Assembly (NCBI GenBank): GCA_964497425.1
Contig: CAZCCR010000004.1
Location: 6,345-70,344 of the forward strand
DNA from: an uncultured Gaiellales bacterium
GTDB taxonomy: Bacteria > Actinomycetota > Thermoleophilia > BMS3ABIN01
Length of the DNA: 64,000 nucleotides
Direction: 5' to 3'
Part shown: in pieces, positions 31,098-46,450 of the stretch
Layout: the number at the start of each line of letters is the position of its first letter
Numbering within the stretch: position 1 is the first letter of the stretch
Notes under the pieces: generated by a model
What the model saw: only the letters and a program-made list of their open reading frames with translations
The model's database searches: none
What the model was told of the DNA's origin: nothing
Position numbers and translations under genes: made by a program

Positions 31098-32825
31098 CTA
31101 CAGATAGCCCAGGTCCTTCAACCGCTGCTCAATGACTTCCGAATCCTCCTCGGAATAGACGTCCTCCTGCTCGGCTTCACCGGCTGTCTCGACACCGTAT
31201 CTGGGCTTGTTGGCCTCAAGGTGTTCCCTTTTGAATATCCGCTCAAGGACCCTGCCGTCGAAGTCTCCGGGGATCTCCTCCCCGAAGTGGTAGAGGACCG
31301 TCGGCGCGACATCGACTATACCGGCGCCTTCCAGCCTCTTGCCCTGCCTTATCGCCGGTCCGGTGGCGATGAATATGCCGTTCAGCTGGTGTCCGCCGGT
31401 GGGATTTCCCAGGGGCCAGTCCCAATCGACAGGTTCCACCGACTCGGACGAACTCCTCGTCCTTATACCGTTGATAACCGCATCGGTGCGCCAGCGGACA
31501 CTGATATCAGCGGCCTTTTCAACCTGTCGGCCCTGGTAGGCATCCTCTCTGCGGAAGACCTCGTCGACGATGGGTTTCCCCGTTGCCGCGTCCCTGGCGT
31601 CCGCCAGTTCAGAACATATGCTTTCACAAAGACCGTCATACTCGGATTGAGGGACGATACCCATGGGGTCACGCCCGGCCAGGTTTATCCAGATATCATC
31701 CATGGCTCCATCACAGAAGGCCTTGGTCCGTCGCCAGTCGATCCCGCCCAGTTTCATCGCCGACTCTACAGCGCCGAGCATGCCAGGGAAACGGCGCGCC
31801 AGTTTCAACTTGGTCGTCGAGGAAAGATACCTGTTGGCCAGTCGGTAACCGGCCCCTCCCACGGCGCCGAACGCGCGCCTGGCGACCTTGCGCGGGTCTG
31901 ACCATGACTGACCTTCCATCCTCATCAGGCCCAGATCGGTGAGCCAATCCCCCAGCAGCTGGGCGCCGCGAGGATTCACCGCTCCACCATGGTCAGATAC
32001 TATCATCACCGTAGCGTCAGGGTTCCTCTCGAGCAGACGCCCGATGATGTCATCCATCCGCTGGTAGACCTTGAGGATGGTGTCGCCGTAGCGTTCCGCT
32101 TCGGCCGGATCATAGGCTGGATGGGATGGGTCGAAGAACTTCCAGTAGAAATGGTGAACGTTGTCGGTCTCGCCGAAGACCACCGTGAAAAGGTCCCAGT
32201 CATATCTGTCCATCAGATAGGAAGTGTGACGATAGCGGATCTCCATACTGTCGAGAAGGCGCTCTGCACCCTCCTTCCAGCGGCCCTCCGACCTGAGCAC
32301 ATGGGTGAGATTGGCGGTGATGCGATACTCACCGTTCTCGGCTATCATCTCCTCGAGCAGGTTCCGGGGATGACACACCTTTTCGCTGTCAACGCCCGGT
32401 GCATCCAGCCCGGCGATCATGCACCCGTTTATCTCCTGTACCGGATAGCTCATGGGCACGTTCACCACGCATCCCGTCCTCTCACCACAGAGGATCTCCC
32501 AGAATGTCCGGGCGCACCGGTGGGCCCCGTTTACGTATCCAAAACCGTAACTGTCGAAATGCCGCTCGGTAAAGCCGAATATGCCATGCTTGCCGGGATT
32601 CTTGCCGGTGCTGAACGATGTCCAGGCCGGCGGGCTGCTCATGGTGGGAACTGAGCGCAAAGGCCCGTACACGCCCCCCTCCATCAGCTTGCCGACGGTC
32701 GGGAGCTTGCCCTCACCGACCCATTTTTCCAGCAGGTCGGGGCTGGTGCCGTCAAACCCCAGTATCAACAACCTGTTTCTCCTACCGTTCTCCAAGCCAC
32801 ACTCCAGGAACTTCCATTCGGTCAC
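31098..32825 (-). CDS. alkaline-phosphatase-superfamily type I phosphodiesterase / nucleotide pyrophosphatase-like enzyme (paralog 1)
   Basis: LILGFDGTSPD metal site, TMSSPPAWTSFSTGKNPGKHGIFGF nucleophile region. Acidic C-terminal tail ending RLKDLGYL. Confidence 0.75.
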   Translation of the reverse strand: MTEWKFLECGLENGRRNRLLILGFDGTSPDLLEKWVGEGKLPTVGKLMEGGVYGPLRSVPTMSSPPAWTSFSTGKNPGKHGIFGFTERHFDSYGFGYVNGAHRCARTFWEILCGERTGCVVNVPMSYPVQEINGCMIAGLDAPGVDSEKVCHPRNLLEEMIAENGEYRITANLTHVLRSEGRWKEGAERLLDSMEIRYRHTSYLMDRYDWDLFTVVFGETDNVHHFYWKFFDPSHPAYDPAEAERYGDTILKVYQRMDDIIGRLLERNPDATVMIVSDHGGAVNPRGAQLLGDWLTDLGLMRMEGQSWSDPRKVARRAFGAVGGAGYRLANRYLSSTTKLKLARRFPGMLGAVESAMKLGGIDWRRTKAFCDGAMDDIWINLAGRDPMGIVPQSEYDGLCESICSELADARDAATGKPIVDEVFRREDAYQGRQVEKAADISVRWRTDAVINGIRTRSSSESVEPVDWDWPLGNPTGGHQLNGIFIATGPAIRQGKRLEGAGIVDVAPTVLYHFGEEIPGDFDGRVLERIFKREHLEANKPRYGVETAGEAEQEDVYSEEDSEVIEQRLKDLGYL

Positions 32826-32932
32826 ATAAAAAAACAGCCCGGGTCGCGCCCCTCGCTGCCTGAGATAATATTACACTCCACGAACATCACCCGCAACGGC
32901 GGGCACTCCCCGGGATCGGCCCCGGTCCCGCA

Positions 32933-34051
32933 TCAACCGCTCCGCTGCCTTTTCCGCCCATATCGGCGGCAAAGCCCCTCATACAGGTCCGTGACACGTT
33001 CCCAGCTGTATTCCTTCCTCACCCTCTCACGGGCTCTCTCCCCGAGCTCCCTGGCCCTTTCCGGCGATGCTATCAGCGCCTTGATCTTTTCGCGCAGGTC
33101 CGCCGCCCCCTTCTTCCCGGAGAAGCTGACACCCGCGTCCCCGATACTCTCCAGGTTGGGCGGATGGTCGTTCACGACCACGCACGCGCCTGCAGCCATG
33201 GCGTCGAGGATCACCGGATGAGTGCCACCGACTTCCGTGGGTATGGCGAAGATGAAGCAATGGAAGCTCAACTCCCTGAAGGCGCCACCGAACTGGTATC
33301 CGGTGAAAATCACCCGCTCGTCGTCGGTCGACTTGAGCCGGTCTATGTATTCTTCAGCGTAAGGTGCATCACCGACGATGACCAGTTTCATGTCCGTCTC
33401 CAGTTCGCTGAAGGCCTCTATCAGGACATGGGCGCAGTTCTCCGGGACCAGGCGTCCTACGAAGAGGATGTACTTTCCCGGTTCAAGCCCGAACCGCTCC
33501 AGGGTCGCGGTGCCTGCGTCCTCGACGACATCCGACCCGTAGGGGATGAAGTCACTGTCCTGGCCGAACCGCTCCAGGTAATAATCCTGTATCACACGGG
33601 AATCGGATATGGTGCGCGTAGCCGCTTTCGGCGCGAACCATTCAGCGAAGCGTATGTACTTCTTCGCCAGCCGGTTCCATTTCTTGCGATGGGAATCAAG
33701 GCCGTCCACGTTGATCAACGACGGTATACCGAACACTCGCGAGAGCAGGGCGAAGGGACTGTTGCCAGCGATGAAGTACAGGGCCACGTCGGCGCGATCG
33801 AACAGGCCCATATGCACCGTGCTGATGAAAGTGTGCACGAAAGTATCAAGGAACTTGTTCCTCACCGTCGGCAGCCTCTTCAGGCGTACGCCCTCGTAAT
33901 GATCACCCTCGTAATCCATCATGTGCGGCCGGCAATAGACAGTCACTTCATGGCCCCTCTGCGCAAGCCTGATGCTGATGGCCTCGACGGCCGTCTCGAA
34001 ACCGCTGTAGCGCCCGGGGATGCCTCTTGTGCCCAGCATGGATATCTTCAA
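32933..34051 (-). CDS. glycosyltransferase family 4 (GT-B)
   Basis: GT4 N-terminal domain and C-terminal EX7E-type region (FAIPTEVGGTHPVILDAMAAG). TTG start at 34049-34051 forms a TTGA overlap with the upstream stop. Confidence 0.8.
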   Translation of the reverse strand: MKISMLGTRGIPGRYSGFETAVEAISIRLAQRGHEVTVYCRPHMMDYEGDHYEGVRLKRLPTVRNKFLDTFVHTFISTVHMGLFDRADVALYFIAGNSPFALLSRVFGIPSLINVDGLDSHRKKWNRLAKKYIRFAEWFAPKAATRTISDSRVIQDYYLERFGQDSDFIPYGSDVVEDAGTATLERFGLEPGKYILFVGRLVPENCAHVLIEAFSELETDMKLVIVGDAPYAEEYIDRLKSTDDERVIFTGYQFGGAFRELSFHCFIFAIPTEVGGTHPVILDAMAAGACVVVNDHPPNLESIGDAGVSFSGKKGAADLREKIKALIASPERARELGERARERVRKEYSWERVTDLYEGLCRRYGRKRQRSG

Positions 34052-35181
34052 CTGGCGCCCGCCTCTCTCAATACGTCCTCGTATACCGCAAGTGTCCTGC
34101 GGGCGCATTCGCGCCAGCTGAAACAGCGCGCCCTCTCGAGGCCCGCCCTGCTGAATGCGGCGTTGACGGCAGGCTCCAGCAACAGGGATGCGGTCGCGGC
34201 GGCGATGCCGTCCACGTCGAAGGGGTCGACCTTGACGCCCGCGTCCCCCACCACCTCAGGCAGTGAGGCCCGGTCCGAGACCACCACCGGCGTACCACAG
34301 GCCATCGCCTCCAGCGGAGGCAACCCGAACCCTTCATATATCGACGGATAGACGAAAACATCCGCGCCGGAGTAGAGCGCGGGCAGGTCCTCGTCCGGGA
34401 CATAACCCGTCAGCACGATATCGTCAGACCAGCGTGACTCTTCGATAAGTGACAGGACGGGGTCGTGGCGCCAGGCTTTCTTGCCTACCAGGACTAGGCG
34501 ATGCCTGATATCCGGCCTGACCGACCTCATGCGTGAATAGGCCCTGATCAGCCGGGGGATGTTCTTCCGCGGCTGGAGATTCCCCACGGCCAGTACATAA
34601 GGCCCGCCGACCCCGTACCGGGACCTCACCGACTCCAGGCGGTCCCTGTCTTCAACAGGGGCGAAATCATCGCCGGCAGCGAGGTATGTCACCGTCACTT
34701 TCTCTTCCGGCAGCCCGTATATCTCCACCAGATCCCGTTTGGAGTGCTCGGAAATGGTCAGGACCCTGGCGGCCAGCCTGGCCGAAAGAGGGAAGGTGGC
34801 CCTGAACTGCAACCGTTCCCTGGCGGAGAAGAACCGGGGATAAGTCTCGAATGATATGTCATGTATCACCGTGACCAGCGGAGCAGTCATCACCGGTGGT
34901 CCCACATACTGGACGTGGAGAAGGTCAAGACCCAGCTTCCAGACCAGCCATGGCGTGACAAAAGGTATTCGCACCAGAGGGTTGGCAGGCAAAGCCATCA
35001 CCGGGCGTGCCTCGGGGAACCTGCCGCCCGCTTCCTCCGCGGCCCGCTCGTCCGTGAACAGCAGCGTGAAACGATGGCCACTGTCAAGTCCGATGAGTCC
35101 GTCTATGAGATTGGTGACATAGGTCTCGTTGCCGGTAAGGCGCCCCCCTATCGCATGAGCATCGATACCGATCTCAGCCAT
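34048..35181 (-). CDS. glycosyltransferase family 4 (GT-B)
   Basis: YPSIYEGFGLPPLEAMACGTPVV EX7E motif. Confidence 0.85.
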   Translation of the reverse strand: MAEIGIDAHAIGGRLTGNETYVTNLIDGLIGLDSGHRFTLLFTDERAAEEAGGRFPEARPVMALPANPLVRIPFVTPWLVWKLGLDLLHVQYVGPPVMTAPLVTVIHDISFETYPRFFSARERLQFRATFPLSARLAARVLTISEHSKRDLVEIYGLPEEKVTVTYLAAGDDFAPVEDRDRLESVRSRYGVGGPYVLAVGNLQPRKNIPRLIRAYSRMRSVRPDIRHRLVLVGKKAWRHDPVLSLIEESRWSDDIVLTGYVPDEDLPALYSGADVFVYPSIYEGFGLPPLEAMACGTPVVVSDRASLPEVVGDAGVKVDPFDVDGIAAATASLLLEPAVNAAFSRAGLERARCFSWRECARRTLAVYEDVLREAGAS

Positions 35182-36631
35182 TTACGGCAACCCGACTTCC
35201 GTTTTGTTCCTCATCGGCCTCTGAGAGCGTCGCTTTGGATAAAGCCACGAGGATGCCGAGATAGATCCAGGGAAAGCCCAGCCAGAAGAAGGATGATGCC
35301 TGTGACGCCACTATCATCACGATGGCCCCCAACGCCATCCCGTAGAGGTTCGCCTTGCGTATCGAGCTGCGGGCTTTCCCCGCCGCCCTGAATGCATAGA
35401 CGATCGGGACGACGTGGATCCAGAGCATGAGGAACGCTCCCACGAGCCCGGTGTCGTGGAGGCTCTGGATCATGGAGCTGAAAAGCCATCCACGATTGGA
35501 GAAATTCTTCTCTCCGATGGACAGGAGCCCGTTTCCCAGGAAGGGGTGACTGCGCCATTCCTCTATCCCCTGGGTCTGGACATCGGTCCGGCCCGCCGCC
35601 GAACTGCTTTGAAAGTTCAACAGGTTCTGCACCCTGCCCAGAAAAGCATTATTCGTTCCTGAAGATTCCGAGAAGACATAATTCACCAGCGGGAAGGAAA
35701 CGGCGAAGATCATGAGCATGGCCAGGATGAATGCTATCGACCTGGGATTTATCACGTTTCTCACCGGCCTCGAGTAGAAAGGCAGATAAACCATCACTAT
35801 TATCACGCCGACCCAGGCGGCGCGCGTCAGTGATGTCATCGTAGCTATGAACAGGAGTATCAGTCCGAGCCAGAGAAACCTCTCACTGGCAATCTTTTCC
35901 TTGCCGTAAGTCACCAGATGAGTGGTGAACAGTATCAGCATGATCGCAACATAGGCGCCCAGGAGGTTCGCTTCCTGGAACAGGCCGCTGGTCGACGGGA
36001 GCTTCAATGTTATCAGGTGGGAAAAGGATATACCGCCTATGTTTATCCCGAGGAAATGCGAGATGAAGGCGGTCAGGGAGTAGAGCGCGTGAATCGCAGC
36101 CATGAGCATCATGAGCTTCACCGTCAGATCCAGCCGTGATCTGTGCTCCAACAGCACATAGACCGTATAGAAGTACATGCTCATGTAGACTATCTGCAGG
36201 AACAGTCCCTGATAGCTGTAAGACGGATCCGGTGAAAACAGGTATGAGGAGACAAAGGCCGTGACAATGAGACCGATGATAGGGATATCGAGAACAGTGG
36301 CCGAGATCCTTGCTTTCCCGCTCAGGAAATAAGTCAGCCAGACAAGGGCGACGATGACCAGGATAACCTGTTCCGGCCTGAATGTGAAAGGGCCCAGGTC
36401 ATAACGGAAGATATTCAGCTGCGCAGCGATCAACAGCAGTATCAGGCCTCGCCAGGGATTGGTGGCGATCGCTGCAACTGCAACGAAAGCGAGAAGCAGC
36501 AACGGGATGACCGGATCGACCATGATCAGGCCGGCGGTGATCAAGCCCGCCGTGACCGCCAAAGCCAGTCCCGATACCACCAGCCAGCGGGCGGCAGGGT
36601 CTAACCTGTACTTTTCCACCAGCTGGTTCAT
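35174..36631 (-). CDS. O-antigen ligase / Wzy-like polysaccharide polymerase membrane protein
   Basis: ~11 TM helices with a Wzy_C-like periplasmic loop. Confidence 0.7.
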   Translation of the reverse strand: MNQLVEKYRLDPAARWLVVSGLALAVTAGLITAGLIMVDPVIPLLLLAFVAVAAIATNPWRGLILLLIAAQLNIFRYDLGPFTFRPEQVILVIVALVWLTYFLSGKARISATVLDIPIIGLIVTAFVSSYLFSPDPSYSYQGLFLQIVYMSMYFYTVYVLLEHRSRLDLTVKLMMLMAAIHALYSLTAFISHFLGINIGGISFSHLITLKLPSTSGLFQEANLLGAYVAIMLILFTTHLVTYGKEKIASERFLWLGLILLFIATMTSLTRAAWVGVIIVMVYLPFYSRPVRNVINPRSIAFILAMLMIFAVSFPLVNYVFSESSGTNNAFLGRVQNLLNFQSSSAAGRTDVQTQGIEEWRSHPFLGNGLLSIGEKNFSNRGWLFSSMIQSLHDTGLVGAFLMLWIHVVPIVYAFRAAGKARSSIRKANLYGMALGAIVMIVASQASSFFWLGFPWIYLGILVALSKATLSEADEEQNGSRVAVNG

Positions 36632-37701
36632 GTTGCCCGTTCTTTTTCAGCTTTGTCACCGGCCGGCCGCGCGCGGCATTTCTCTTCCAGCCTGGAACTG
36701 TATTCCATCGCATACCCGGGGCCGTGCAGACCCAGCCTGAGGGATGTCACCGCATACAAGCGCATGTCTTCATTGCGTGCAACCTCATCATCCATCATGT
36801 GACCGGTGAGAGGTATCAGTCTCGCCAGTGTGACGAGGAGATATCTGATGAAATACGCCATCGACATCAGCAGCCCGAAGATATTGAATCTGGGGAAGCC
36901 CAACTGCCCTGCGGCGACGCGGAACAGGCCGCCCATCCAGAGAAGCCGTGCTTCCGGACTGCCGGTACTGCTGGCTCCCCCGTAATGGACCACCCTTATC
37001 CACGGCAACAGGTGCAGCTTCCATCCGGCCTGACGCATCCTCACCCCGTATTCGACGTCTTCCGCATACATGAAATGCTCATCGTCCAACATGCCCACTT
37101 CGTCAATAACACTACGCCTTGTCACCATGCAGGCGCCGCCTATCCAGTCTACCGGCATCGGTTTCCGCGTACTCCGCGAACGCACGAACATGCCCCTTGA
37201 GCGTCCTCCCAACACCGCCTGCAACCCGGATAACTGGCTGAAGGCGGATGCTGGTGAAGGCGCATAGCCGCCGCTGTATTGCAGATGGCCGGAGCGTCCC
37301 ACCAGTTGTGGTCCGACCGCGGCTACTCCGGGGGAATTCTCCAGATACCGCACGAAGTGGGCCAGGGAGCCCGGCGGCGTCATGATATCCGAATTCACCA
37401 GGGCGATATACTCACCCGAGCTCTCGCGGATACCCTGATTGGTCGCCGCTGCGAAGCCGGTGTTCTCATCATTCTCGATGACCCTGGCCCCGGGGAACTC
37501 CTCACGCACCATCCGCGCGCTGCCATCACTCGAACCGTTATCAATGACGATCGTCTCAAATGCCAAACCTTCCGCGGCAGCCGGGATCCTCTCCAGGCAT
37601 TCTCTTAATATCTCGCGGGTATTCCAGCTTACTATGATCACAGAGAGGCCGATACCTGAGGATGGAGTCTCTGCGGCTAGAGGGCCATTCATTTCCGACA
37701 A
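36628..37701 (-). CDS. glycosyltransferase family 2
   Basis: VIIVSWNTRE...DNGSSDGS...ENDENTGFAAATNQG, with a DxD in ALVNSDI. Confidence 0.85.
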   Translation of the reverse strand: MSEMNGPLAAETPSSGIGLSVIIVSWNTREILRECLERIPAAAEGLAFETIVIDNGSSDGSARMVREEFPGARVIENDENTGFAAATNQGIRESSGEYIALVNSDIMTPPGSLAHFVRYLENSPGVAAVGPQLVGRSGHLQYSGGYAPSPASAFSQLSGLQAVLGGRSRGMFVRSRSTRKPMPVDWIGGACMVTRRSVIDEVGMLDDEHFMYAEDVEYGVRMRQAGWKLHLLPWIRVVHYGGASSTGSPEARLLWMGGLFRVAAGQLGFPRFNIFGLLMSMAYFIRYLLVTLARLIPLTGHMMDDEVARNEDMRLYAVTSLRLGLHGPGYAMEYSSRLEEKCRARPAGDKAEKERAT

Positions 37702-38665: not shown

Positions 38666-40015
38666 TCATGCAGGAACCCTTCGCCCCGCCGACCCGGACC
38701 TGCCGGTTCGATCTGTTTCCTTGACACGCAATACGTTCCCATGCATGATGCCCGCGGCAACCCAGAACATGGAAAAGATCGACCATATCATCATGGCGTC
38801 GAAGGTCATGGCGTTGAGGGAGATACCGATCACGCTCACCAGGCCCGCGACTATCCAGGAAACACGCCAATTCTTCCGTGATACCGTCCGCACGCCTTCA
38901 TATATCAAGACACCCAGCAGCCAGATCCAGAGCAGGAACCCGACCAGTCCCTGTTCCAGGAAGGTGTTGATGTAGTTGTTGTCCACGGGCTTGTAGCGGC
39001 CCTTATATATGAGAAACCCGCGGCAGTCCTCGCAGTAGGGGATGATCTCCCTGCGGCCCATCCTCAAACCGACCCCCAGCACCGGATGGTCTTTTATCAC
39101 CTCAAACGACGCCTGCCAACCGGTAAGCCTGAAACTCACGCTTTTTTCAGAACGTTCAGAGGTCTCATGCGCGAGTTTATCCCAGAATATGCCTGTTACC
39201 GCCAGTACGACGATCATCAACAGCATCAACGGCAAAGCCAGTCTTCGCTGCTCCCGCAGGAAGAAGAGGACAAGCGCCCCCGTTAGAATGACTCCCGCAG
39301 CCGCCCAGCTGCCCTTGGTGAAAGTGAATATCAGGGCCAGGACGACGAGAAACGAGACGGCGCCGCCCAGGTACCTGCCGAAACGGGAACCACCCCTCAG
39401 CCAGAACAGCACACAGAACGGCAGTGCCTGCACCAGGAACGCGCCAAAAGCCACCGGGTGGGCCAGGAATGAACCACTGCGGTGGAGCAGCGTGCCCTCC
39501 GCCACGGGAACAGACTCCACCAGATAGCGGCCCAGGATAACGTTGGAGCCATAGAAATACTCAAACAGACCATAAACGGATGTGACGCCGGCAAGAATCA
39601 CGATAAGCATGCCTATCCATTCCATCCGCTTCTCATCGTTGGCTACAAGCACCGCCAGATAGAAGAGGCTGACCGCCAACAAGGCATACTTCACCGAAGC
39701 GCCACCGGACTCGCCACTGATGTTCCTGAGAACGAAATAGGAATAATAGGTCACGAGGGAGATGTCCGCCATGCCCAGAGACAGCCTCCTTCGATTCCGC
39801 CAGAGAAGAGCCACGGCCCCGATCGCCGCCAACGGCATAAGCAAGGTAAGCGGCAGGATATGCTGCGTTCCCGCCATTATCACGTCGGGCATATAGGTCT
39901 CTGGATAAAGGACCGCAGTAGTGATCACAACCGTGAGAAGGATGGCAGCTGCGACCGTACCCCTGAGATGAGGCGAAGGACCCTCCCGGATTCCGGTTGT
40001 ACCCTTGTGATCCAT
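38666..40015 (-). CDS. second O-antigen ligase / Wzy-like membrane protein
   Basis: Polytopic membrane protein with a Wzy-type large loop. Confidence 0.65.
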   Translation of the reverse strand: MDHKGTTGIREGPSPHLRGTVAAAILLTVVITTAVLYPETYMPDVIMAGTQHILPLTLLMPLAAIGAVALLWRNRRRLSLGMADISLVTYYSYFVLRNISGESGGASVKYALLAVSLFYLAVLVANDEKRMEWIGMLIVILAGVTSVYGLFEYFYGSNVILGRYLVESVPVAEGTLLHRSGSFLAHPVAFGAFLVQALPFCVLFWLRGGSRFGRYLGGAVSFLVVLALIFTFTKGSWAAAGVILTGALVLFFLREQRRLALPLMLLMIVVLAVTGIFWDKLAHETSERSEKSVSFRLTGWQASFEVIKDHPVLGVGLRMGRREIIPYCEDCRGFLIYKGRYKPVDNNYINTFLEQGLVGFLLWIWLLGVLIYEGVRTVSRKNWRVSWIVAGLVSVIGISLNAMTFDAMMIWSIFSMFWVAAGIMHGNVLRVKETDRTGRSGSAGRRVPA

Positions 40016-40025: not shown

Positions 40026-41291
40026 CTAAGACAGCAGACCCGTGATCACCTCAGCCACCTGACGTATGCTGGTGACTTCAGCGGCTGCGTCATCTTCTCT
40101 GGCGGCGAGCCAGAAGGCGTCGTTGAATGTGTGCATACCGGACAGGTGGGTCCTGCCCATTACGTCGGGCCGGCCGATAGCGCCCTTGAGGTCATAACCA
40201 TCGTATGGCATCGCGACCAGGTCGGGAGCCTGCTCCAGGCACGGACCGTGATAGAGTTCGTCACGTTTATATACATGCTGGATGATCTCCCTGCCGGTCT
40301 CCGGGTCCCTCAGGGAAGCTACCGCTTCTGCCAGTTCCTCAACCGCAGCGTCATAGTCGCCGGCGCTGACGATCCCCCCCGGTTCCCTTCCCGCCAGATT
40401 GACATAAAGCCGGCCGGGGTCCATGCAATAGGCGCGAGTCGCTGAAGGTTCGATATCAGCGATGGTGACCGGGCGGTCGCCCCGCAACTCCAGAAACCCC
40501 GCCTGCTGGAGGAAGCGGTTCAGGTATACCTCCTTGTCGATGGAGCAGAAACCGTGATCCGAGAGCATGAATACCGCGGTATCTTCAGGGATCCCGGCCA
40601 GGAACTCACCGATGATCTCGTCGACACGCCGGTAATAGCGGATGAACTCCGACGCATAGGTACTGTCTTTCTCCTGATAATGACGCCAGAGGAAATGATG
40701 CAGGCGGTCCGTACCCGTGAAGACGTTCATGAAGAAGTCCCAGGAACGGGATTCCCAGAAATGAAGCATGGCCTCCCGCCTCTTCTCCAGGGTCTCGTGG
40801 AGGTCTTCCAGCAGCAGGTCGAGGGATTCACGGCCCTTCGATGCGTCCACATCGATCCTGTAACCGCTCTGTCGCAGGTACTCGTATGCTTCGACGGGAT
40901 ACGTCGCCCGCTCCAGGTTCGGCGCAACGAAACCGGAGACTAGGATGCCGTTCAGGGGACGGGCGGGATAGGTGGATGGGACGTTCAGTATGCAGCAGCT
41001 CCTGCCTTCCCCGCTCAACAGATCCCAGAAAGGCTCCGCCTTGAGGTGACTGTAGTTGGGGAAATACAGCTCGTAGGAGCCGGGCTTCCGGCCGGTGAAC
41101 CCGTATATTCCGTGCTCTCCGGGGTTCTTCCCGGTCATGAACGAGGCCCAGGCCACCGAAGAGATGGTGGGAATCTCCGATTCCATCCTGGAGAAGACCC
41201 CTCCGGAAGCCAGGGCGGCTATGTTGGGCAGGTTCCCGGACTCGATCTCATCATTGAGAAAGCTGAACGGAGTGCCGTCCAGACCGACCAC
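40026..41291 (-). CDS. type I phosphodiesterase/NPP-like enzyme (paralog 2)
   Basis: MVGLDGTPF, IPTISSVAWASFMTGKNPGEHGIYGF. GTG start. The N-terminus is shorter than in the paralogs. Confidence 0.75.
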   Translation of the reverse strand: MVGLDGTPFSFLNDEIESGNLPNIAALASGGVFSRMESEIPTISSVAWASFMTGKNPGEHGIYGFTGRKPGSYELYFPNYSHLKAEPFWDLLSGEGRSCCILNVPSTYPARPLNGILVSGFVAPNLERATYPVEAYEYLRQSGYRIDVDASKGRESLDLLLEDLHETLEKRREAMLHFWESRSWDFFMNVFTGTDRLHHFLWRHYQEKDSTYASEFIRYYRRVDEIIGEFLAGIPEDTAVFMLSDHGFCSIDKEVYLNRFLQQAGFLELRGDRPVTIADIEPSATRAYCMDPGRLYVNLAGREPGGIVSAGDYDAAVEELAEAVASLRDPETGREIIQHVYKRDELYHGPCLEQAPDLVAMPYDGYDLKGAIGRPDVMGRTHLSGMHTFNDAFWLAAREDDAAAEVTSIRQVAEVITGLLS

Positions 41292-41463
41292 GACTACGCG
41301 ATTTCCGTTGCGATTGTTTTTGATCGCTACCTACCGCCTGTTTCACTCGGTGCGAAAGAACACACCTGAGCCCACTGATACAAGAAACCTTTTATCTGGA
41401 ACACTACATCAACATGGGTACATCGATATGATTTTACCAGCAATGGAGTTTGATTGGATAACC

Positions 41464-43176
41464 CTAAAGATAGCCAAGGTCCTGCAAGCGCTTGCGCACC
41501 TCTTCTTCATCCTCTTCGGTCAATACCTCCTCAGCCTGCTCCGGCTCAGACTCTCCAACGGCCCTTTCATACGAATCTCCGGCTATAGGCCTGGGGGCCC
41601 CTCCGGTCATGGCGCTAGCCAGTATCTCCCCATCCCAACCTTCGGGTACGGCCAGCCCGAGAAGGTTCAGGGCGGTGGGCGCCACATCGATGATCCGCAC
41701 CTCCCCCAGGTCGGAACCCTGTATATCCGGACCTCCCATGACGAGGATCCCTTCGAGCCTGTGGTTGCCGGTATGTGCAAGCTCCCTGCGTTCCGGGTAG
41801 ACGGACCGCACCAGCCCCGTCCCCGAGAGCTCTGAATAGGTGCTGTAGACCCCCCTGTATGCGTGATTACGCATGGATATGACCATGTCGGGCATCTCCG
41901 GCTCCAGTGGCCCCTGGAATAGGTCCTCCTTCATGTTGAACTCGGTGATGAGCGGCTCTTCGTCTGCAGGGTTCCTGAACCGGGACAGCGCTTCTTTCGC
42001 CCGGGACAGCACTTGTCGCCGTTCCTCTTCGCCGTCGACTATACCCATGGGCTCACGGCCCTTCAGATTGACGTACATGCACCCGAACTGAGCCAGGGAA
42101 TAGATCTGTGTATCACTCCAGTCGATATCGGCGACAAGGGCGTCTACATAGAGTACTACCGCCCTTCCGGTCTCGTAGTCCTTGCGCAGATAGCGCTTCA
42201 TACGCCAGCGGGCCGCGGGCGGGATCAACGGTGTGACCCTGTTGTAGACGAATTCCTTTACCCGGCGCCTGGCTCCTTTCTGCCTGAACCTCAGAAGCCC
42301 CGCCTCGGCGAGGATGCGGTTGAGACAGACCTCGCCTTCAAGCCGCCCGAAACCATGATCCGACATGAAGATAAGGTTGCGGTCCCTGGCCCAGCCGGAC
42401 CAGCGCTCGCCCAGCTCCCTGTCGAGACGTTCATAGCAGGCAAAGATGGCCTCCGCTCTCCTCCTCTCCTTCGCCGATGCTTTCCCGCCGTCGCTGATGA
42501 CGTTCTCAGCCGATCGCCAGAAAACGTGCTGGAGGATGTCGATGGAACGGATCACCGCGATAAAGAGGTCCCAGTCCTCATGATCCATCAGGAAGCGGAT
42601 GGTCTTCAGTTCCGTCTCCATATAAGCACGAAGCCTGGCTATGTACTCATCAACCGGATCGTTGCTGTTCTTTATCAGATACTTGATATCGACCCGGGGC
42701 TCGATGGAGAAGCCGGGGACAGCCCTTTGCAGCTCCCGCTGGAACTCGAGGGGATATACGGCCTTTTCATCAAGACGGGGAGAGTCCATGCCCGATATCA
42801 TGATGCCGTTGACCGGCGCGGCGGGATAAGTCATGGGTACGTTGTAGACACATACGCGCTTGCCCTGGTTGCCTGCTATCTTCCATAGCGGTTCGCCCTT
42901 TACCCGGGTGGCGTTCACCGGCGCGAGCTTGTAGGTGCCGGGGATGCGGGTGAAAAAATCCACGACCCCGTGCTTGCCCGGGTTCGTGCCGGTGTAGAAG
43001 GACGCCCATGCCGCCGGGGTCAAGGGCGGTATGGTCGAGCGCAAGGTAGCCCTGCCACCTCGCTCGAGCAGTGCTCCCATGTTGGGCATCCTCCCCTGTC
43101 CCACAAGATGATCGATTATCCGGAAGGTCCCGCCATCGATACCGATTATCGCTACTTTCGACAAATCCCTCTTCAC
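41464..43176 (-). CDS. type I phosphodiesterase/NPP-like enzyme (paralog 3)
   Basis: VAIIGIDGGTF, IPPLTPAAWASFYTGTNPGKHGVVDFF. Acidic C-terminal tail ending RLQDLGYL. Confidence 0.78.
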   Translation of the reverse strand: MKRDLSKVAIIGIDGGTFRIIDHLVGQGRMPNMGALLERGGRATLRSTIPPLTPAAWASFYTGTNPGKHGVVDFFTRIPGTYKLAPVNATRVKGEPLWKIAGNQGKRVCVYNVPMTYPAAPVNGIMISGMDSPRLDEKAVYPLEFQRELQRAVPGFSIEPRVDIKYLIKNSNDPVDEYIARLRAYMETELKTIRFLMDHEDWDLFIAVIRSIDILQHVFWRSAENVISDGGKASAKERRRAEAIFACYERLDRELGERWSGWARDRNLIFMSDHGFGRLEGEVCLNRILAEAGLLRFRQKGARRRVKEFVYNRVTPLIPPAARWRMKRYLRKDYETGRAVVLYVDALVADIDWSDTQIYSLAQFGCMYVNLKGREPMGIVDGEEERRQVLSRAKEALSRFRNPADEEPLITEFNMKEDLFQGPLEPEMPDMVISMRNHAYRGVYSTYSELSGTGLVRSVYPERRELAHTGNHRLEGILVMGGPDIQGSDLGEVRIIDVAPTALNLLGLAVPEGWDGEILASAMTGGAPRPIAGDSYERAVGESEPEQAEEVLTEEDEEEVRKRLQDLGYL

Positions 43177-43195
43177 GTTCCTTTCATTTGCACCA

Positions 43196-44752
43196 TCATG
43201 CCCTGCCGGGAAGCAGACGGGACTTGAACATGCGGATCACCGCCCTGTCCTCCTCGTTCATGCCCAGGAGGAACACGGCTGGTGTATAGACCGTCACGAA
43301 CAACAGAGCCGACAGCACAACCATGGCCCAGCTGTCTCCGCCGAATATCCAGATGACCATGACGGCGGCCGCGGCGCCGGTGGCGCCGGCGAACAGGGGC
43401 ACCAGATAGTTCCTGTCGTAGGCGTTCATATGCATGATAACCCAAACTTCGATGGCCCGCATGAGGTTGATCACCGCGACCGCGGACATATTGGCGATGG
43501 CGGCGCCGGTGATACCGTAGTCCGGTATCAGCAGGAAACACAGGGATACGTTGACCACTAGCGAGGTCAGCACGTTATAGAGCTCCATATGCGACCTGCC
43601 GGACATGATCACCATCATCCCCACCAGGCCGGTGCCTGCGTTCATCATCTGCCCCAGCGCCAGGAGAAGCAGCGCGTTCCTGCCTTCGGAGAAACCGGAG
43701 CCGAATATACCCATGATCGTCCCGGAGAAGATTATCAGCAGCAGCAGCAGCGGGTAGCTGCAGATAAAGATCCAGCGCGTCACCGTCTTGAACAGGACCC
43801 GCAGTTCGCCTATCTTCCTCTTGTCGTACAAATCCGAGATGACCGGAGCGAAGACGGTACGAAAGGCCGTCAGGATGGCTACGCTGCCGGTCACCCCCAC
43901 CCGGAGAGCCGCGCCATAATACCCTGCGTCCGTCGACGTCCCCAGGTAGCCGACCAGCAGCATATCCGAATACAGCAGGATGATACCGAAGACGTTTGAG
44001 AATGCCAGCGGTAAGGAATAGCGGAAAAGGCCACTCCGGACCTTCGCCAGGCCTTCATCATCTCCACCAGCGACACGTGGCATGATCATCGCCGCGAACA
44101 GCATGGAAAGCGCCGCCGCCGACATCAGCGCCGCCACGTTAGCCCAGACCACACCCACCAGCCCGGCGCCGAAGGCAAGGACTATCAGGGACAGTATCAC
44201 CTTCGATGACTGTTCACCGAAGTCACGGCTGTATACCTGGTAGCGCATGCGATGCATCGCCTGTGTCACGGAGTTGGAGAGTTTGGCTATGGCCCAGAAG
44301 GGTACGGCGATGGCGAATATCCGCATCGCCCTCACCGCGTTCTCGCTGCCGTCGAACAGCGGATCTGCCAGTACGGGGGCGATGAAGAAGAGCGCTACGG
44401 CTATGGCAGCGCCGAGTGACACACCGACCATCAGCGCCGCATTGACGACATGCCTGGTTTTGCGAAAATCGCCTCTGCCGGTGAAGATGGAAACATAGTG
44501 CACCACACCCAGGTCAAGACCTGCGACCGATACCAGCCCGAGGATATTGATGATGGTGAACATGAGGAAGTACTGGCCCAGTTCGGACGCCGGCAGCAGC
44601 CATGCCAGCAGGAGAGTGTACCCGTATAACAAGACCATGCGGACGATGGCGCCCGAGAAGTTTATGGTGGCGCCTTTGGCTACATGGGGCAGATAGGAAC
44701 GCCGGCCTGTGGCACCATCCGGCGAGATCGACCCCGTTTTATTACCAGTCAA
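43196..44752 (-). CDS. wzx: oligosaccharide flippase (MOP superfamily, Wzx-like)
   Basis: 14-TM polysaccharide biosynthesis protein family. Confidence 0.8.
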   Translation of the reverse strand: MTGNKTGSISPDGATGRRSYLPHVAKGATINFSGAIVRMVLLYGYTLLLAWLLPASELGQYFLMFTIINILGLVSVAGLDLGVVHYVSIFTGRGDFRKTRHVVNAALMVGVSLGAAIAVALFFIAPVLADPLFDGSENAVRAMRIFAIAVPFWAIAKLSNSVTQAMHRMRYQVYSRDFGEQSSKVILSLIVLAFGAGLVGVVWANVAALMSAAALSMLFAAMIMPRVAGGDDEGLAKVRSGLFRYSLPLAFSNVFGIILLYSDMLLVGYLGTSTDAGYYGAALRVGVTGSVAILTAFRTVFAPVISDLYDKRKIGELRVLFKTVTRWIFICSYPLLLLLIIFSGTIMGIFGSGFSEGRNALLLLALGQMMNAGTGLVGMMVIMSGRSHMELYNVLTSLVVNVSLCFLLIPDYGITGAAIANMSAVAVINLMRAIEVWVIMHMNAYDRNYLVPLFAGATGAAAAVMVIWIFGGDSWAMVVLSALLFVTVYTPAVFLLGMNEEDRAVIRMFKSRLLPGRA

Positions 44753-44788
44753 TTACCACTCCGCTATGTCCTCTTGACCACAACACCT

Positions 44789-44812
44789 AAAAAGAAGCCC
44801 TGACCAGGGCTT
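44789..44812 (-). terminator. rho-independent terminator downstream of the initiating sugar transferase
   Basis: AAGCCCT-loop-AGGGCTT stem followed by CTTTTT on the minus strand. Confidence 0.55.
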
Positions 44813-44893
44813 TCCCAATCGCGCCTGTACCTGATTGTTTTCCCTCCCGGCCGAATAATCCTCTTGCCGCCAAGGCCGACAGCAGGCCCTTTC

Positions 44894-46450
44894 TCAGTAC
44901 GCCCCCCGCTTGCGCAGGATAGCGATAAACGTCCTGATTATTATCTTCAGGTCCCACCTCAGTGTCCAGTTGGTGACGTATATATAGTCCAGCTGCACCA
45001 TCTCCTCGAAGGGGATGTCGCTGCGGCCCAGTATCTGCCAGAGGCCGGTGATACCCGGCTGCACCATGTGGCGCATGTCGGCGGTACCGGTGCAGGACTC
45101 CGCCTCCGCCACCGGCAGCGGCCGCGGCCCCACCAGGCTCATCTCGCCGCGGAAGACGTTGATCAGCTGGGGCAGTTCATCGATGCTGGTGCGGCGGATG
45201 AAACGGCCGACACGTGTGACCCGTGGGTCCTCCTTCATCTTGAAGATGGGACCGCTGGCGTCGCTCATCTCCTCCAGCTCACCCTTCCGTTCCTCCGCGT
45301 CCGCATGCATGGAACGGAACTTGTACATCATGAAACGTCTGTGGCCCTTGCCCATGCGCTCCTGTCTGAAGAATATGGGGCCGGGAGAGTCCAGCCTGAT
45401 GAGGATCCCCACCAGGATGAGCAGCGGTGACAGCAGTAGCGTCGCCAGCGAGGCGCCCAGCAGGTCCAGGGTCCGCTTCGTCGCCCTCATCATGCGGCCA
45501 TGCCGGGCGTAACGGGGCAGGCTGGCCATGGTCAGACCTTCCACCTCCTCGATCTCGACCCTCTCGGACAGGGCCTCGAAGAAACGTGGCACCACGCTCA
45601 CATCGACCTTCATCTCCTGGCATTCGTGGATCACCTCGAGGATACGGTCATAGGGAGCCCGGGAAAAGGCGACCAGCACCCGGCTGATGCCGTACCTGTC
45701 CACGATTTCCCGCAACTCCGACGGCCTGCCCAGAATCTGCACGTCACCTGCTTCCTCACCTTCCTCCTCAGTGATGGAGTCCAGGAAGCCCACCACCCTC
45801 AGACCGTATTCCTTGTGGCGGTTGAGCCGCCCGATCAGGCTGCGGCCCACTTCACCGGCGCCGACGACCAGGGCGCTGGTGCGGAAAGGGTTATGGAAGG
45901 CCGTGGTCATGCGAAAGGAGGCACGGGCCAGCGGTAACAGGAACAGCAGCATGAACCAGGTGCAGGCCACGAAGAGCCATACAGCCTTGAAGGAGATGTA
46001 ATCAGGCGCCGCGATGAGCAGGATGGAGACACTGAGCCACGCCGCCACCGCCAGAGCTCCGACGGACTGGGGCCACTCATCGAAGGTGGAGACGCACATC
46101 CGCGTTATCTCGCGCTTGTAGACACCGAAAGTGAGGAACACCAGAAGCCAGACCGGGATGGTCGCGAAACTGAGCAACAGGAGCGAACTGTCGATCCTGC
46201 CCACATTGGCTCCCAGCCAACCGCCGAAGAGGCCGTGATTCAGCCAGGCGTCGGCGATGAAGTAGGCGGCCACCATCGCCAGCGATATGGTGACGGTATC
46301 GATAAAGGGGATGGCTGAGGCATGGACCGCCCTCAGCAGCTGCAACTCACGCCGCGGCACCTCCCGCTCGGTCTCGTATGGCAGGAAGCTCCATTGCCGG
46401 GATGCGCCGTCTTTTTGCGCAGCCGGATCCGATTCAGGTCTTCGTTCCAA
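44894..46450 (-). CDS. undecaprenyl-phosphate sugar phosphotransferase (bacterial sugar transferase, WbaP/EpsB-like initiating enzyme)
   Basis: N-terminal TM segments, CoA-binding-like central domain. C-terminal MGKGHRRFMMYKFRSM...DELPQLINV...MSLVGPRP motifs. Confidence 0.88.
   Translation of the reverse strand: MERRPESDPAAQKDGASRQWSFLPYETEREVPRRELQLLRAVHASAIPFIDTVTISLAMVAAYFIADAWLNHGLFGGWLGANVGRIDSSLLLLSFATIPVWLLVFLTFGVYKREITRMCVSTFDEWPQSVGALAVAAWLSVSILLIAAPDYISFKAVWLFVACTWFMLLFLLPLARASFRMTTAFHNPFRTSALVVGAGEVGRSLIGRLNRHKEYGLRVVGFLDSITEEEGEEAGDVQILGRPSELREIVDRYGISRVLVAFSRAPYDRILEVIHECQEMKVDVSVVPRFFEALSERVEIEEVEGLTMASLPRYARHGRMMRATKRTLDLLGASLATLLLSPLLILVGILIRLDSPGPIFFRQERMGKGHRRFMMYKFRSMHADAEERKGELEEMSDASGPIFKMKEDPRVTRVGRFIRRTSIDELPQLINVFRGEMSLVGPRPLPVAEAESCTGTADMRHMVQPGITGLWQILGRSDIPFEEMVQLDYIYVTNWTLRWDLKIIIRTFIAILRKRGAY

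Follow-up and report, generated by a model that had tools for sequence, protein, structure and literature searches.

The known glycan phospho-substituent transferases of the alkaline phosphatase (AlkP) superfamily, such as EptA/MCR-1, LtaS, OpgB and GacH-type glycerol-phosphate transferases, belong to the sulfatase branch (PF00884), phospho-decorate glycans using a Thr/Ser nucleophile, and are membrane proteins whose transmembrane domains are N-terminal and whose catalytic domains lie outside the cytoplasm. The NPPs (Xanthomonas NPP, 2gsn; ENPP1, 3, 6 and 7; autotaxin) belong to a different family, PF01663, and the known ones are secreted or ecto-enzymes. A further PF01663 member, the actinobacterial c-di-AMP phosphodiesterase AtaC, is a soluble, cytoplasmic, Mn-dependent signalling enzyme modelled on PhnA, a monomer with one domain and a mass of about 44 kDa, with catalytic residues D68, T108, D227, H231, D269, H270 and H384, for which neither a tail nor a basic insert was described (PMC7132281).

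The window analysed here (the whole stretch of 64,000 nucleotides) contains, at positions 31098–46450 on the minus strand, a glycan-assembly island of the Wzx/Wzy-dependent type; it comes from an uncultured actinobacterium whose closest relatives are Thermoleophilia MAGs. Island genes were assigned with Pfam and NCBIfam profiles, and all of the genes named in the earlier note were found on that strand at the coordinates it gave:

44894..46450, minus strand: PGT, initiating polyprenyl-phosphate glycosyl-1-phosphate transferase (Bac_transf PF02397, 225 bits; TIGR03025, 400 bits, cutoff 295)
43196..44752, minus strand: Wzx-type flippase of the MOP family (Polysacc_synt PF01943, PF13440, MatE)
41464..43176, minus strand: AlkP-A, 570 aa, long-type, NPP-like (PF01663, 133 bits, cutoff 23)
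40026..41291, minus strand: AlkP-B, 421 aa, short-type (PF01663, 157 bits, cutoff 23)
38666..40015, minus strand: Wzy_C protein 1, polymerase- or ligase-like (PF04932, 70 bits)
37740..38498, minus strand: short Wzz/PCP-like protein lacking a kinase domain (PF02706, 36 bits, residues 1–57 only)
36628..37701, minus strand: GT2 glycosyltransferase (PF00535, 87 bits)
35174..36631, minus strand: Wzy_C protein 2 (PF04932, 42 bits)
34048..35181, minus strand: GT4 glycosyltransferase (PF00534, 117 bits)
32933..34108, minus strand: GT4 glycosyltransferase with a DUF1972-type N-terminal domain (PF00534, 75 bits; PF09314)
31098..32825, minus strand: AlkP-C, 575 aa, long-type, third deep clade (PF01663, 99 bits, cutoff 23)
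22962..31055, no strand assigned: conserved accessory cassette flanking the island (profile matches; same gene set in locus L039)

The AlkP-A gene starts 20 nt downstream of the end of the Wzx gene, and the Wzx-then-AlkP order was seen again in related loci. The two Wzy_C proteins, the first of which also matches the NCBIfam families IctB and PEP_O_lig_1 below threshold, are only 24% identical over 180 residues, and such gene pairs were found repeatedly in related loci; as the earlier note suggested, they may stand for two polymers or for a polymerase and a ligase. The accessory cassette encodes an HprK-related kinase, PqqD-like and transglutaminase-core-like proteins, DUF2079, NTP_transf_5, a secreted FN3 protein and an rSAM/SPASM protein; the same set adjoins an 80% ortholog of AlkP-C in L039. 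No nucleotide-sugar genes were detected between 22.9 and 46.5 kb, in line with what the earlier note said of the locus, but its suggestion that the AlkP genes replace them did not hold up, as such an absence is common for loci of this type and does not amount to evidence of substitution. Elsewhere in the window, positions 12680–14857 encode a PgpH-type 7TM-HD protein, of a family that includes c-di-AMP phosphodiesterases.

The three AlkP genes diverged long ago within a single, very large cytoplasmic branch of the superfamily that falls in PF01663 (99–157 bits). Their products are soluble NPP-type paralogs with intact active sites, in support of the earlier note's assignment to soluble NPP-type enzymes. 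JGI names the family 'predicted AlkP superfamily phosphohydrolase/phosphomutase', which we take to be COG3379; we found no paper on it and no solved structure of a relative. Homologs number in the thousands: a 50%-identity library contained 16,035 representatives at E ≤ 1e-3 and 3,502 at E ≤ 1e-30. The seven two-metal and nucleophile positions are kept in all three paralogs and in 63–64 of 64 aligned sequences, and their spacing agrees with that published for AtaC (PMC7132281). No Pfam family other than PF01663 scored above cutoff, with PF00884 reaching 16–17 bits (cutoff 25). Neither a transmembrane segment nor a signal peptide was found in AlkP-A, AlkP-B or AlkP-C, in which no 19-residue window exceeded a Kyte-Doolittle value of 1.39, and 355 of 367 family members have their first metal-binding Asp among the initial 30 residues (median residue 13), features by which we assign the proteins to the cytoplasm. 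One relative, P0241, is a tandem AlkP-AlkP fusion in a single protein.

The best fold match of AlkP-A is Xanthomonas NPP (Foldseek, 2gsn, E = 6e-17, TM-score 0.66 normalised to target), and the best 50 PDB matches listed were all NPP/ENPP enzymes, which have in common with the family PF01663, the two-metal ligands and a Thr/Ser nucleophile. Unlike the NPPs, to which they are only 12–16% identical, the family members are cytoplasmic, have about 95 extra residues, a basic hairpin among them, separating the DHG motif from the last His, carry an acidic linker followed by an LGY helix, are encoded in glycan loci, and apparently have Phe where the NPPs have their transition-state Asn, as judged by motif alignment only. 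AtaC resembles them in PF01663 membership and in its catalytic Asp/Thr/His pattern and spacing, compared by its published description; PhnA is the nearest solved relative of both, and the proteins studied here differ in occurring as multiple paralogs within Wzx/Wzy loci. PhnA (3szy, 1ei6) was the best PDB sequence match (E = 0.0098 with a single sequence, 4.9e-9 with the family profile) over only about 100 residues of the N-terminal metal and nucleophile region; the NCBIfam family TIGR02335 scored 20–23 bits against a cutoff of 408, and the locus contained no phosphonate genes. Phosphopentomutase and cofactor-independent phosphoglycerate mutase (iPGM) share with the family a cytoplasmic location, two metals, a Ser/Thr nucleophile and an inserted subdomain, and the database name hints at a mutase; however, neither Pfam family was detected at E ≤ 0.01, neither enzyme was among the best 50 fold matches listed, and iPGM gave weak partial profile matches to the last beta-alpha unit only.

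AlkP-A, AlkP-B and AlkP-C are 29–32% identical to each other and fall into three deep clades. The Thr nucleophile proposed for all of them is correct for AlkP-A (Thr53), while the other two have Ser (Ser64 and Ser44). In AlkP-A the catalytic positions are D14, T53, D213, H217, D273, H274 and H472; its GTG start at 43176 agrees with homologs, and a public gene call starting at Met33 would cut off D14. AlkP-B keeps all catalytic positions; its N-terminus is 7–20 residues shorter than in homologs, and an in-frame ATC at 41324–41326 is a possible start. AlphaFold models of AlkP-A and AlkP-C had pLDDT values of 91.4 and 92.5, and the true start of AlkP-C is probably later in the ORF, whose residues 1–13 had pLDDT < 50. 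Among the homologs listed, the nearest relatives of AlkP-C are 80% and 65% identical and come from Thermoleophilia-type MAGs.

The two long proteins, AlkP-A and AlkP-C, terminate in ...EEDEEEVRKRLQDLGYL and ...EEDSEVIEQRLKDLGYL, respectively. This shared ending is real and is neither specific to these paralogs nor due to chance, since the motif Y-S-x-E-E...[IV]-x-x-R-L-x-x-L-G-Y-[LIV] was present in 373 of the 408 unique family sequences that reach 480 aa; its Leu, Gly and Tyr are 100% conserved among those 373, and the chain ends 1–2 residues past the Tyr in 366. The RL(K/Q)DLGYL ending is the hallmark of the family. The tail was present in 119 of 119 AlkP-C homologs among the matches listed and absent from all 132 short representatives of the AlkP-B clade. 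It is made up of a flexible acidic linker (pLDDT 61–64 ahead of the AlkP-A helix) and, after it, a predicted amphipathic, capped helix, and the long proteins also carry a basic helical hairpin after the SDHG metal motif:

41467..41523, minus strand: AlkP-A tail, residues 552–570, LTEEDEEEVRKRLQDLGYL (predicted helix 554–566, pLDDT 82–87)
31101..31160, minus strand: AlkP-C tail, residues 556–575, VYSEEDSEVIEQRLKDLGYL (predicted helix 559–571, pLDDT 73–81)
42142..42291, minus strand: AlkP-A basic helical hairpin insert, residues 296–345, net charge +11 (helices 302–317 and 320–336, pLDDT 41–80)

In tailed proteins the median insert measured 93 aa and had a net charge of +9, compared to 51 aa and a charge of about 0 in tail-less proteins, and the insert/tail figures of the window proteins were +11/−9 and +8/−7. 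Insert and tail co-occur across the family, and both are missing from the short subfamily to which AlkP-B belongs, a correlation that reflects no more than two or three independent losses in evolution.

The family is a habitual resident of glycan loci in many phyla, often in several diverged copies. In the first sample, 21 of 37 loci had Wzx immediately beside an AlkP-family gene, with gaps often of −3 to 45 nt; such adjacency was much less frequent in the sample of the AlkP-C clade (7 of 36 loci), and no Wzx gene adjoins AlkP-C itself. The Wzx genes that adjoin short AlkP genes group in a clade of their own. Of the 36 loci in the independent metagenome sample that reached 8 kb, 34 had recognisable glycan genes and 17 had Wzx, and 35 of 79 loci held two or more AlkP genes (maximum six). 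Some members adjoin genes for soluble sugar-activation enzymes (GHMP kinases, cytidylyltransferases with NeuB, or PAPS synthase), those of Planctomycetota adjoin a GH3-family adenylating enzyme, and some lie in clusters in which neither Wzx nor PGT was detectable.

As the best explanation as a whole, held tentatively and at somewhat less than an even chance, we propose that, ahead of export, these enzymes modify an intermediate of the repeat unit that contains a phosphate ester and is probably linked to lipid. The substrate would carry a phosphate ester or pyrophosphate at the cytoplasmic membrane face, and a phospho-linked substituent would be added or trimmed via a covalent Thr/Ser-phosphoryl intermediate ahead of Wzx export, with each paralog having its own specificity in the manner of glycosyltransferase paralogs. 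The basic hairpin would hold anionic membrane or a substrate phosphate group and might be masked by the acidic linker. This proposal draws on synteny and sequence features. The transfer or trimming of phospho-substituents suggested in the earlier note is plausible, and the sulfatase-branch transferases offer a functional analogy, although the three proteins score below the PF00884 cutoff, lack a transmembrane segment and are cytoplasmic. Against transfer, the known PF01663 enzymes are hydrolases. Other points against the proposal are the lower frequency of direct Wzx adjacency in the AlkP-C clade sample, the lack of a Wzx gene next to AlkP-C, and the apparent Phe in place of the NPP Asn.

It is less probable, though a serious contender, that the enzymes supply precursors, acting on soluble sugar phosphates or nucleotide-activated sugars rather than a lipid-linked unit, as a phosphatase, phosphomutase or nucleotide-sugar pyrophosphatase that makes or edits glycosyltransferase precursors. 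One source calls the family phosphohydrolase/phosphomutase; in about 10 loci a GHMP sugar kinase is found no more than two genes away; L081-type loci have a GHMP sugar kinase between two AlkP genes and PAPS synthase directly upstream; a short-type AlkP is fused to PAPS_reduct (PP-loop) in a nonulosonic-acid cluster with NeuB and three cytidylyltransferases; and NPP3 binds UDP-GlcNAc (PDB 6f30). Such neighbours, including the GH3-type enzymes, fit soluble substrates as well or better. However, the island encodes no kinase or nucleotidyltransferase that could cooperate, the best 50 fold matches listed were NPPs rather than phosphopentomutase or iPGM (iPGM profile matches were weak and partial, E about 1e-4), and a precursor enzyme would not be expected to come in two to six deeply diverged copies at a locus or to be tightly coupled to Wzx.

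Under the preferred reading, the tail helix would dock onto a catalytic domain, its own or that of a partner subunit, as proposed solely from the pLDDT of the monomer models. We think it unlikely that the tail is instead a short linear motif recruiting the enzyme to a pathway protein (such as Wzx, PGT or a kinase that targets the conserved Tyr/Ser), or a sorting signal. A disordered acidic linker ending in an invariant peptide does resemble C-terminal recruitment peptides, of which the SSB and FtsZ tails are examples. Its fixed distance from the protein end, its retention after the inserted PAPS_reduct domain in P0346, its occurrence once per polypeptide in tandem fusions, and the HprK-related kinase gene in the island are consistent with recruitment, while the confident helix in the monomer models (pLDDT 73–87) suggests docking in cis and the tail is equally conserved in loci lacking an adjacent Wzx. 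Sorting, as the earlier note had it, is disfavoured because the proteins are cytoplasmic and the motif is confined to the family (in approximately 600 kb of related loci, only a few short chance matches occurred elsewhere) and is internal in one TPR fusion; the confident helix of the monomer models and the joint occurrence of tail and basic insert, both absent from the short clade, likewise do not suit a sorting signal.

Very little probability attaches to the enzymes being cytoplasmic nucleotide phosphodiesterases, either AtaC-like c-di-AMP hydrolases regulating polysaccharide output or scavengers of inhibitory by-products, UMP, UDP or PAP for example. AtaC is a soluble cytoplasmic actinobacterial PF01663 enzyme with the same catalytic pattern (PMC7132281), its modelling template PhnA is the best PDB sequence match here, and some loci have sulfotransferases or PAPS synthase; however, a regulator or scavenger should be single-copy, the loci hold up to six paralogs, each often with its own Wzx, all proteins except AlkP-B are 130–190 residues longer than AtaC, with insert and tail, and the window already has the PgpH-type protein. 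Equally improbable is a flippase-coupled quality control that cleaves the pyrophosphate of stalled undecaprenyl-PP-linked intermediates or Und-PP at the cytoplasmic face to free Und-P: NPP-type enzymes cut pyrophosphate and phosphodiester bonds, including those of lipids (autotaxin, ENPP6 and ENPP7 substrates), the genes are coupled to Wzx, and the basic aromatic hairpin could bind membrane, but a generic rescue enzyme would not need several deeply diverged copies at each locus, and some members are found in clusters where neither Wzx nor PGT could be detected.

The observation in the earlier note is therefore confirmed and its interpretation partly supported: it withstood two checks that could have told against it, since the proteins did not group with phosphopentomutase or iPGM, as judged by fold matches and Pfam, and the DLGYL motif was present in homologs. 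Modification of a repeat-unit intermediate before export is our favoured, tentative account of what the enzymes do. The family is found consistently within glycan loci and a role in the polysaccharide pathway is well supported, and since RLxDLGYL is the hallmark of a very large unstudied family in the polysaccharide loci of many phyla, this locus is typical rather than a one-off.

The glycan island of the window comprises eleven co-directional genes on the minus strand (31098-46450), among them those for the three PF01663 enzymes AlkP-A, AlkP-B and AlkP-C.

Genes of the glycan island
44894-46450, minus strand: polyprenyl-phosphate glycosyl-1-phosphate transferase (PGT), PF02397; TIGR03025 at 400 bits against a cutoff of 295
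43196-44752, minus strand: Wzx-type flippase
41464-43176, minus strand: AlkP-A, 570 aa, PF01663
40026-41291, minus strand: AlkP-B, 421 aa, PF01663
38666-40015, minus strand: first Wzy_C protein
37740-38498, minus strand: short Wzz-like protein, N-terminal Wzz match only
36628-37701, minus strand: GT2
35174-36631, minus strand: second Wzy_C protein
34048-35181, minus strand: first GT4
32933-34108, minus strand: second GT4
31098-32825, minus strand: AlkP-C, 575 aa, PF01663

The PGT, Wzx, Wzy-type polymerase and glycosyltransferases are clustered and all score above cutoff, as in a Wzx/Wzy-dependent locus; such pathways make capsules, O-antigens and exopolysaccharides. Neither a BY-kinase nor an outer-membrane exporter was found for this locus. 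The island has a G+C content of 0.55-0.60, compared to ~0.64 around it, and is bordered by housekeeping genes below ~21.5 kb and by a formate-dehydrogenase-like gene above 46.6 kb. Thermoleophilia/Actinomycetota MAGs are the nearest relatives of the window, and one part of JGI metagenome contig Ga0256747_1000045 is identical to it. PF01663 scores were 133, 157 and 99 bits for AlkP-A, -B and -C (curated cutoff 23). The earlier note was correct in observing three phosphodiesterase paralogs in a Wzx/Wzy locus, and wrong in taking them as a substitute for nucleotide-sugar genes.

By HMM, fold and active-site pattern, the three proteins are NPP-type enzymes with predicted phosphodiesterase/pyrophosphatase activity. 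AlphaFold models were confident (pLDDT 91.4 for AlkP-A and 92.5 for AlkP-C; pTM 0.92), and Foldseek matched the AlkP-A model to 2gsn, 7n1s, 4gtw and 5egh at E = 1e-17 to 1e-14, with a target-normalised TM-score of ~0.66, which points to an NPP-like core fold in the predicted structure. The 50 best PDB matches were all NPP-type (Xanthomonas NPP, ENPP1, 3, 6, 7, autotaxin and snake venom PDE), at 12-16% identity. Sequence and profile searches of the PDB returned no family member with a structure, the matches to PhnA and NPP being partial (E = 0.0098 with a single query sequence, ~5e-9 with a profile), and no NCBIfam model fitted, the sole match being PhnA at 20-23 bits against a cutoff of 408. 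Grouping with phosphopentomutase, an outcome that by the earlier note would have refuted its reading, was not found, nor was grouping with iPGM: no Pfam mutase family matched at E ≤ 0.01, NPPs made up all 50 best fold matches, and iPGM profile matches were weak and partial (E ~1e-4). Membership of the sulfatase branch of transferases (EptA, LtaS, OpgB) was likewise rejected, as PF00884 scored 16-17 bits against a cutoff of 25 and the proteins have no TM segment.

The metal ligands and nucleophile (D14, T53, D213, H217, D273, H274 and H472 in AlkP-A numbering) are common to all three paralogs and conserved in 63-64 of 64 aligned sequences, the seven positions being assigned by motif and spacing against AtaC rather than by structural superposition. 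The Thr nucleophile claimed for the three paralogs was present in AlkP-A and replaced by Ser in AlkP-B and AlkP-C. A Phe (Phe74) may occupy the position of the NPP Asn that stabilises the transferred phosphoryl group (Asn111 in the Xanthomonas enzyme), as judged from a hand alignment, rather than a structural one, of the ...TGxNPGKHGvvDF... motif with the NPP motif ...TGLYPESHGIIDN.... Homologs named 'predicted AlkP superfamily phosphohydrolase/phosphomutase' by JGI, a clade for which COG3379 is presumably the number, were among the matches to AlkP-A (34-59% identity) and AlkP-C (36-80%) at 97-100% query coverage. AtaC, a cytoplasmic PF01663 enzyme that acts as a c-di-AMP phosphodiesterase, has a reported spacing of catalytic residues like that of AlkP-A, -B and -C, a comparison of residue pattern only (PMC7132281). 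In contrast to AtaC, however, window-type enzymes occur in multiple copies in glycan loci, which argues against orthology to the Streptomyces protein.

AlkP-A, -B and -C are old paralogs. They share 29-32% pairwise identity and, when 55 family members from related loci were placed in a tree, fell into three deep clades, which led us to reject a recent duplication; AlkP-B belongs to a distinct short clade. Thermoleophilia MAGs hold AlkP-A orthologs at 50-59% identity, and orthologs of AlkP-C were found at 80% and 65%. The family is predicted to be cytoplasmic because no hydrophobic or TM segment was seen in the three paralogs (highest Kyte-Doolittle 19-residue window 1.39, compared to 2.56 in Wzx) and because 355 of 367 family proteins have their first metal Asp among the first 30 residues (median position 13); on the same grounds secretion was rejected. 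The public call for AlkP-A (P0001, 538 aa) begins at Met33 and would thereby lose the metal-binding Asp14, while the GTG at 43176, 20 nt past the Wzx stop, gives a start that agrees with homologs (43081-43176, minus strand). The 421-aa AlkP-B frame begins 'MVGLDG', 7-20 residues later than its homologs (41292-41330 upstream, minus strand), and no ATG, GTG or TTG occurs from the preceding stop codon up to the GTG at 41291. An in-frame ATC at 41324-41326 would yield (M)KNNRNGNRVVVVGLDG, which is similar to homolog N-termini, and AlkP-B could thus have a non-canonical start or be slightly truncated.

Genomic context was assessed in two samples, with locus searches run using narrower alignments. 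In the first, 37 unique loci from GTDB genomes and look-ups (mainly AlkP-A relatives), Wzx was the immediate same-strand neighbour of AlkP in 21 loci, with gaps of -27 to ~300 nt. Some loci held two Wzx-AlkP pairs, as in the Wzx-AlkP-Wzx-AlkP order of L012; in L002, L007 and L014, a long AlkP comes after Wzx, and a short AlkP shares a 4-nt overlap with a second Wzx. Those Wzx genes that adjoin short AlkP genes form a clade of their own. Thermodesulfobacteriota-type loci (L004, L036 and L038, the last from Desulfamplus magnetovallimortis) combine the same Wzx-AlkP order with a PF03279 acyltransferase. The second, independent sample consisted of 80 metagenome loci with AlkP-C relatives at 32-44% identity. 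Glycan genes were recognisable by custom HMMs in 34 of the 36 loci of at least 8 kb, and Wzx was present in 17 of these 36 and immediately adjoined AlkP in 7, probably an undercount, as the Wzx/Wzy HMMs came from Thermoleophilia-rich seeds (the Wzx of L032 was overlooked by the custom HMM and detected by Pfam). Two or more AlkP genes were found in 35 of 79 loci, the extreme being an operon-like array of six paralogs, three either side of a lone Wzx (L047:6299-17706), upstream of which lie a PGT, Wzz, GT4 and a gene matched by our B12-rSAM HMM and not confirmed by Pfam. Counts from that HMM are unreliable because it cross-matches generic radical-SAM genes of the window (HemW-like, MiaB-like), except where confirmed by Pfam (L002, L004, L036, L039 and L040).

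Other partners also recurred. Among 125 otherwise unassigned neighbours were 11 hexapeptide acyltransferases, 10 GHMP kinases, about 9 methyltransferases, 6 FAD amine-oxidase-like proteins and 2 PAPS synthases. A soil metagenome locus (L081:3547-16332) carries a bifunctional PAPS synthase, AlkP, GHMP kinase, AlkP, hexapeptide acyltransferase, GT4, HlyD, OEP (TolC-like), Wzx and TPR, and similar arrangements recur in L057, L067, L080, L089 and L101; some clades may thus be connected with sulfate or sugar-1-phosphate chemistry. In two Planctomycetota genomes, a GH3-family (PF03321) adenylating enzyme directly precedes AlkP (L022:8237-11689 of Kolteria novifilia Pan216, and L026:8133-11668), and custom HMMs detected no Wzx or glycosyltransferase near AlkP in these two loci. 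Overall, the contents of both samples firmly bind the AlkP family to glycan biosynthesis, with a variable immediate partner, and the suspected link of these enzymes to the pathway held.

An accessory cassette adjoins the island (22962-31055), and the same set lies beside the 80% AlkP-C ortholog in L039.

Genes of the accessory cassette
22962-24053: HprK-related kinase
24053-24364: PqqD-like protein
24318-24866: transglutaminase-core3-like protein
within 22962-31055: DUF2079 membrane protein
26776-27987: NTP_transf_5 nucleotidyltransferase
28000-29889, minus strand: secreted FN3 protein
30009-31055: rSAM/SPASM enzyme

The cassette resembles lasso-peptide or RiPP-type accessory genes, and no cyclase was seen within it. 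On the other side of the island, 46640-48217 and 48266-50800 (minus strand) form a single reading frame broken by an in-frame TGA (48264-48266). The TGA context (...VDHCARL-TGA-HAPSVAGLA) is the selenocysteine motif of formate dehydrogenases, and GltD-like, ferredoxin-like and Molybdop_Fe4S4 domains are found in the N-terminal portion, which together suggest that 46640-50800 probably encodes a single selenoprotein of about 1,386 aa. Elsewhere in the window, a prokaryotic diacylglycerol/undecaprenol-kinase domain is fused to a PAP2 phosphatase domain in one gene, adjoined by a PgpH-type 7TM-HD gene (11486-12490 and 12680-14857, minus strand); the fusion may have a role in carrier-lipid recycling.

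The C-terminal ending is a hallmark of the family; the earlier note was right that the motif is conserved. The tail, an acidic linker followed by ...RLxxLGY[LIV], was present in about 110 of the 120 best AlkP-A homologs (down to 34% identity) and in all 119 listed AlkP-C homologs (36-80%). Among 408 unique collected family proteins of at least 480 aa, 373 have [LMIV]-G-Y within the last 14 residues, and 366 of these 373 end 1-2 residues past the Tyr. AlkP-A and AlkP-C carry the tail; the short clade of AlkP-B is tail-less.

Conservation of the tail (positions relative to the terminal Tyr = 0)
-17: Tyr, 84%
-16: Ser/Thr, 82%
-14 and -13: Glu/Asp, 82-95%
-9: Ile/Val, 90%
-6: Arg, 81%
-5: Leu, 100%
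-2: Leu, 97%
-1: Gly, 100%
0: Tyr, 100%
+1: Leu/Ile/Val, 95%

The models place a helix at 554-566 in AlkP-A and 559-571 in AlkP-C (pLDDT 73-87), preceded by a less confident acidic linker. S-x-x-E would form a helix N-capping box and L-G-Y-[LIV] a glycine C-cap, with [IV]-9, L-5, L-2 and Y0 as the likely hydrophobic face. Portability was assessed from ~600 kb of fetched related loci, in which the motif was confined to the AlkP family save for a few short chance matches, and from three fusion proteins: a tandem AlkP-AlkP with a single tail at its extreme end (P0241, 1,104 aa), an AlkP-AlkP-TPR protein with ...QLETLGYL internal, after the second AlkP domain and ahead of the TPR repeats (P0345, 1,276 aa), and a short-type AlkP joined to PAPS_reduct and ...QLRTLGYM (P0346, 707 aa). 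The last of these, with the LGYM tail (L040:8001-10124), is housed in a nonulosonic-acid cluster. Judging from the three fusions, the tail is a modular element present in a single copy per polypeptide, and a free C-terminus is not strictly required. A sorting role, as once proposed, finds no support given the predicted cytoplasmic location and the internal motif of P0345. The confidence of the AlphaFold models favours docking of the tail on a catalytic domain, and a function as recruitment motif for a partner protein seems rather unlikely.

The tail goes together with a basic insert. The stretch from the SDHG metal motif to the N..GREP motif has a median of 93 residues and a median net charge of +9 in tailed proteins, compared to ~51 residues and a charge near 0 in full-length proteins that lack the tail (the short clade and a clade with coiled-coil ends). 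In AlkP-A, the insert comprises helices 302-317 and 320-336, rich in Arg, Lys, Trp and Tyr, with a net charge of +11 at low pLDDT (41-80), and the tail region carries -9; the corresponding charges in AlkP-C are +8 and -7. The correlation is strong by counts, behind which stand only two or three independent evolutionary events, and the sole exception was P0094, which has a tail with a short insert.

The firm part of the picture consists of an intact NPP-like two-metal site, a cytoplasmic location, a genomic setting in glycan loci where coupling to Wzx is frequent, multiple diverged paralogs and the coupling of a conserved tail to a basic insert. We suggest that the enzymes would target a phosphate-ester or pyrophosphate group of a repeat-unit intermediate, for which the lipid-linked unit at the surface of the membrane is the most plausible candidate, and would add or trim a phospho-linked substituent ahead of export. 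This is the best explanation that we can offer and, taken as a whole with its firm parts included, it is tentative, having somewhat less than an even chance of being right. Such a modification would explain why a flippase frequently has its own enzyme, why the paralogs multiplied in the manner of glycosyltransferases, and why the long forms are equipped with a basic aromatic hairpin, which would suit an anionic membrane. The strongest alternative, in which the enzymes would act on sugar phosphates in solution or on activated sugars, draws on the GHMP kinase, cytidylyltransferase and PAPS contexts, but the window island holds no partner enzymes for such a route, and we regard it as fairly unlikely. 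Nucleotide signalling or by-product hydrolysis, and equally carrier-lipid rescue, are improbable. A bolder version of modification of lipid-linked units is doubtful: a new class of cytoplasmic, membrane-peripheral AlkP-fold transferases that would put phosphate-linked substituents (sulfate-linked in loci with PAPS genes) on these units and license their export by the cognate Wzx, with the basic hairpin as membrane anchor and the acidic linker and LGY helix as an autoinhibitory or dimerisation switch.

The literature search found no paper on the AlkP family (COG3379) or its link to Wzx/Wzy loci, and AtaC was the only characterised cytoplasmic PF01663 enzyme found. When 1.84 billion representative proteins were scanned in full with AlkP-B, 16,035 matched at E ≤ 1e-3 and 3,502 at E ≤ 1e-30. 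The family has thousands of members, found next to flippase genes in lineages that include Actinomycetota, Thermodesulfobacteriota, Anaerolineae and Omnitrophota, and the window locus is an ordinary case of a widespread, apparently unstudied arrangement. Its value is to draw attention to the family rather than to anything peculiar to the window. To our knowledge, the known tailoring enzymes of Wzx/Wzy pathways are acetyl-, pyruvyl-, methyl- and sulfotransferases and extracytoplasmic phospho-transferases. Given its intact two-metal site, and with no function, structure or paper found for it, the family points to a component missing from the current inventory of polysaccharide assembly. If its members process only soluble precursors or nucleotides, the result would be a useful refinement of annotation and little beyond. 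If they modify lipid-linked units in the cytoplasm, they would add a reaction class to glycan biosynthesis and explain the co-diversification of flippases and enzymes, and the ...RLxxLGY[LIV] ending would serve as a signature for locating such loci.
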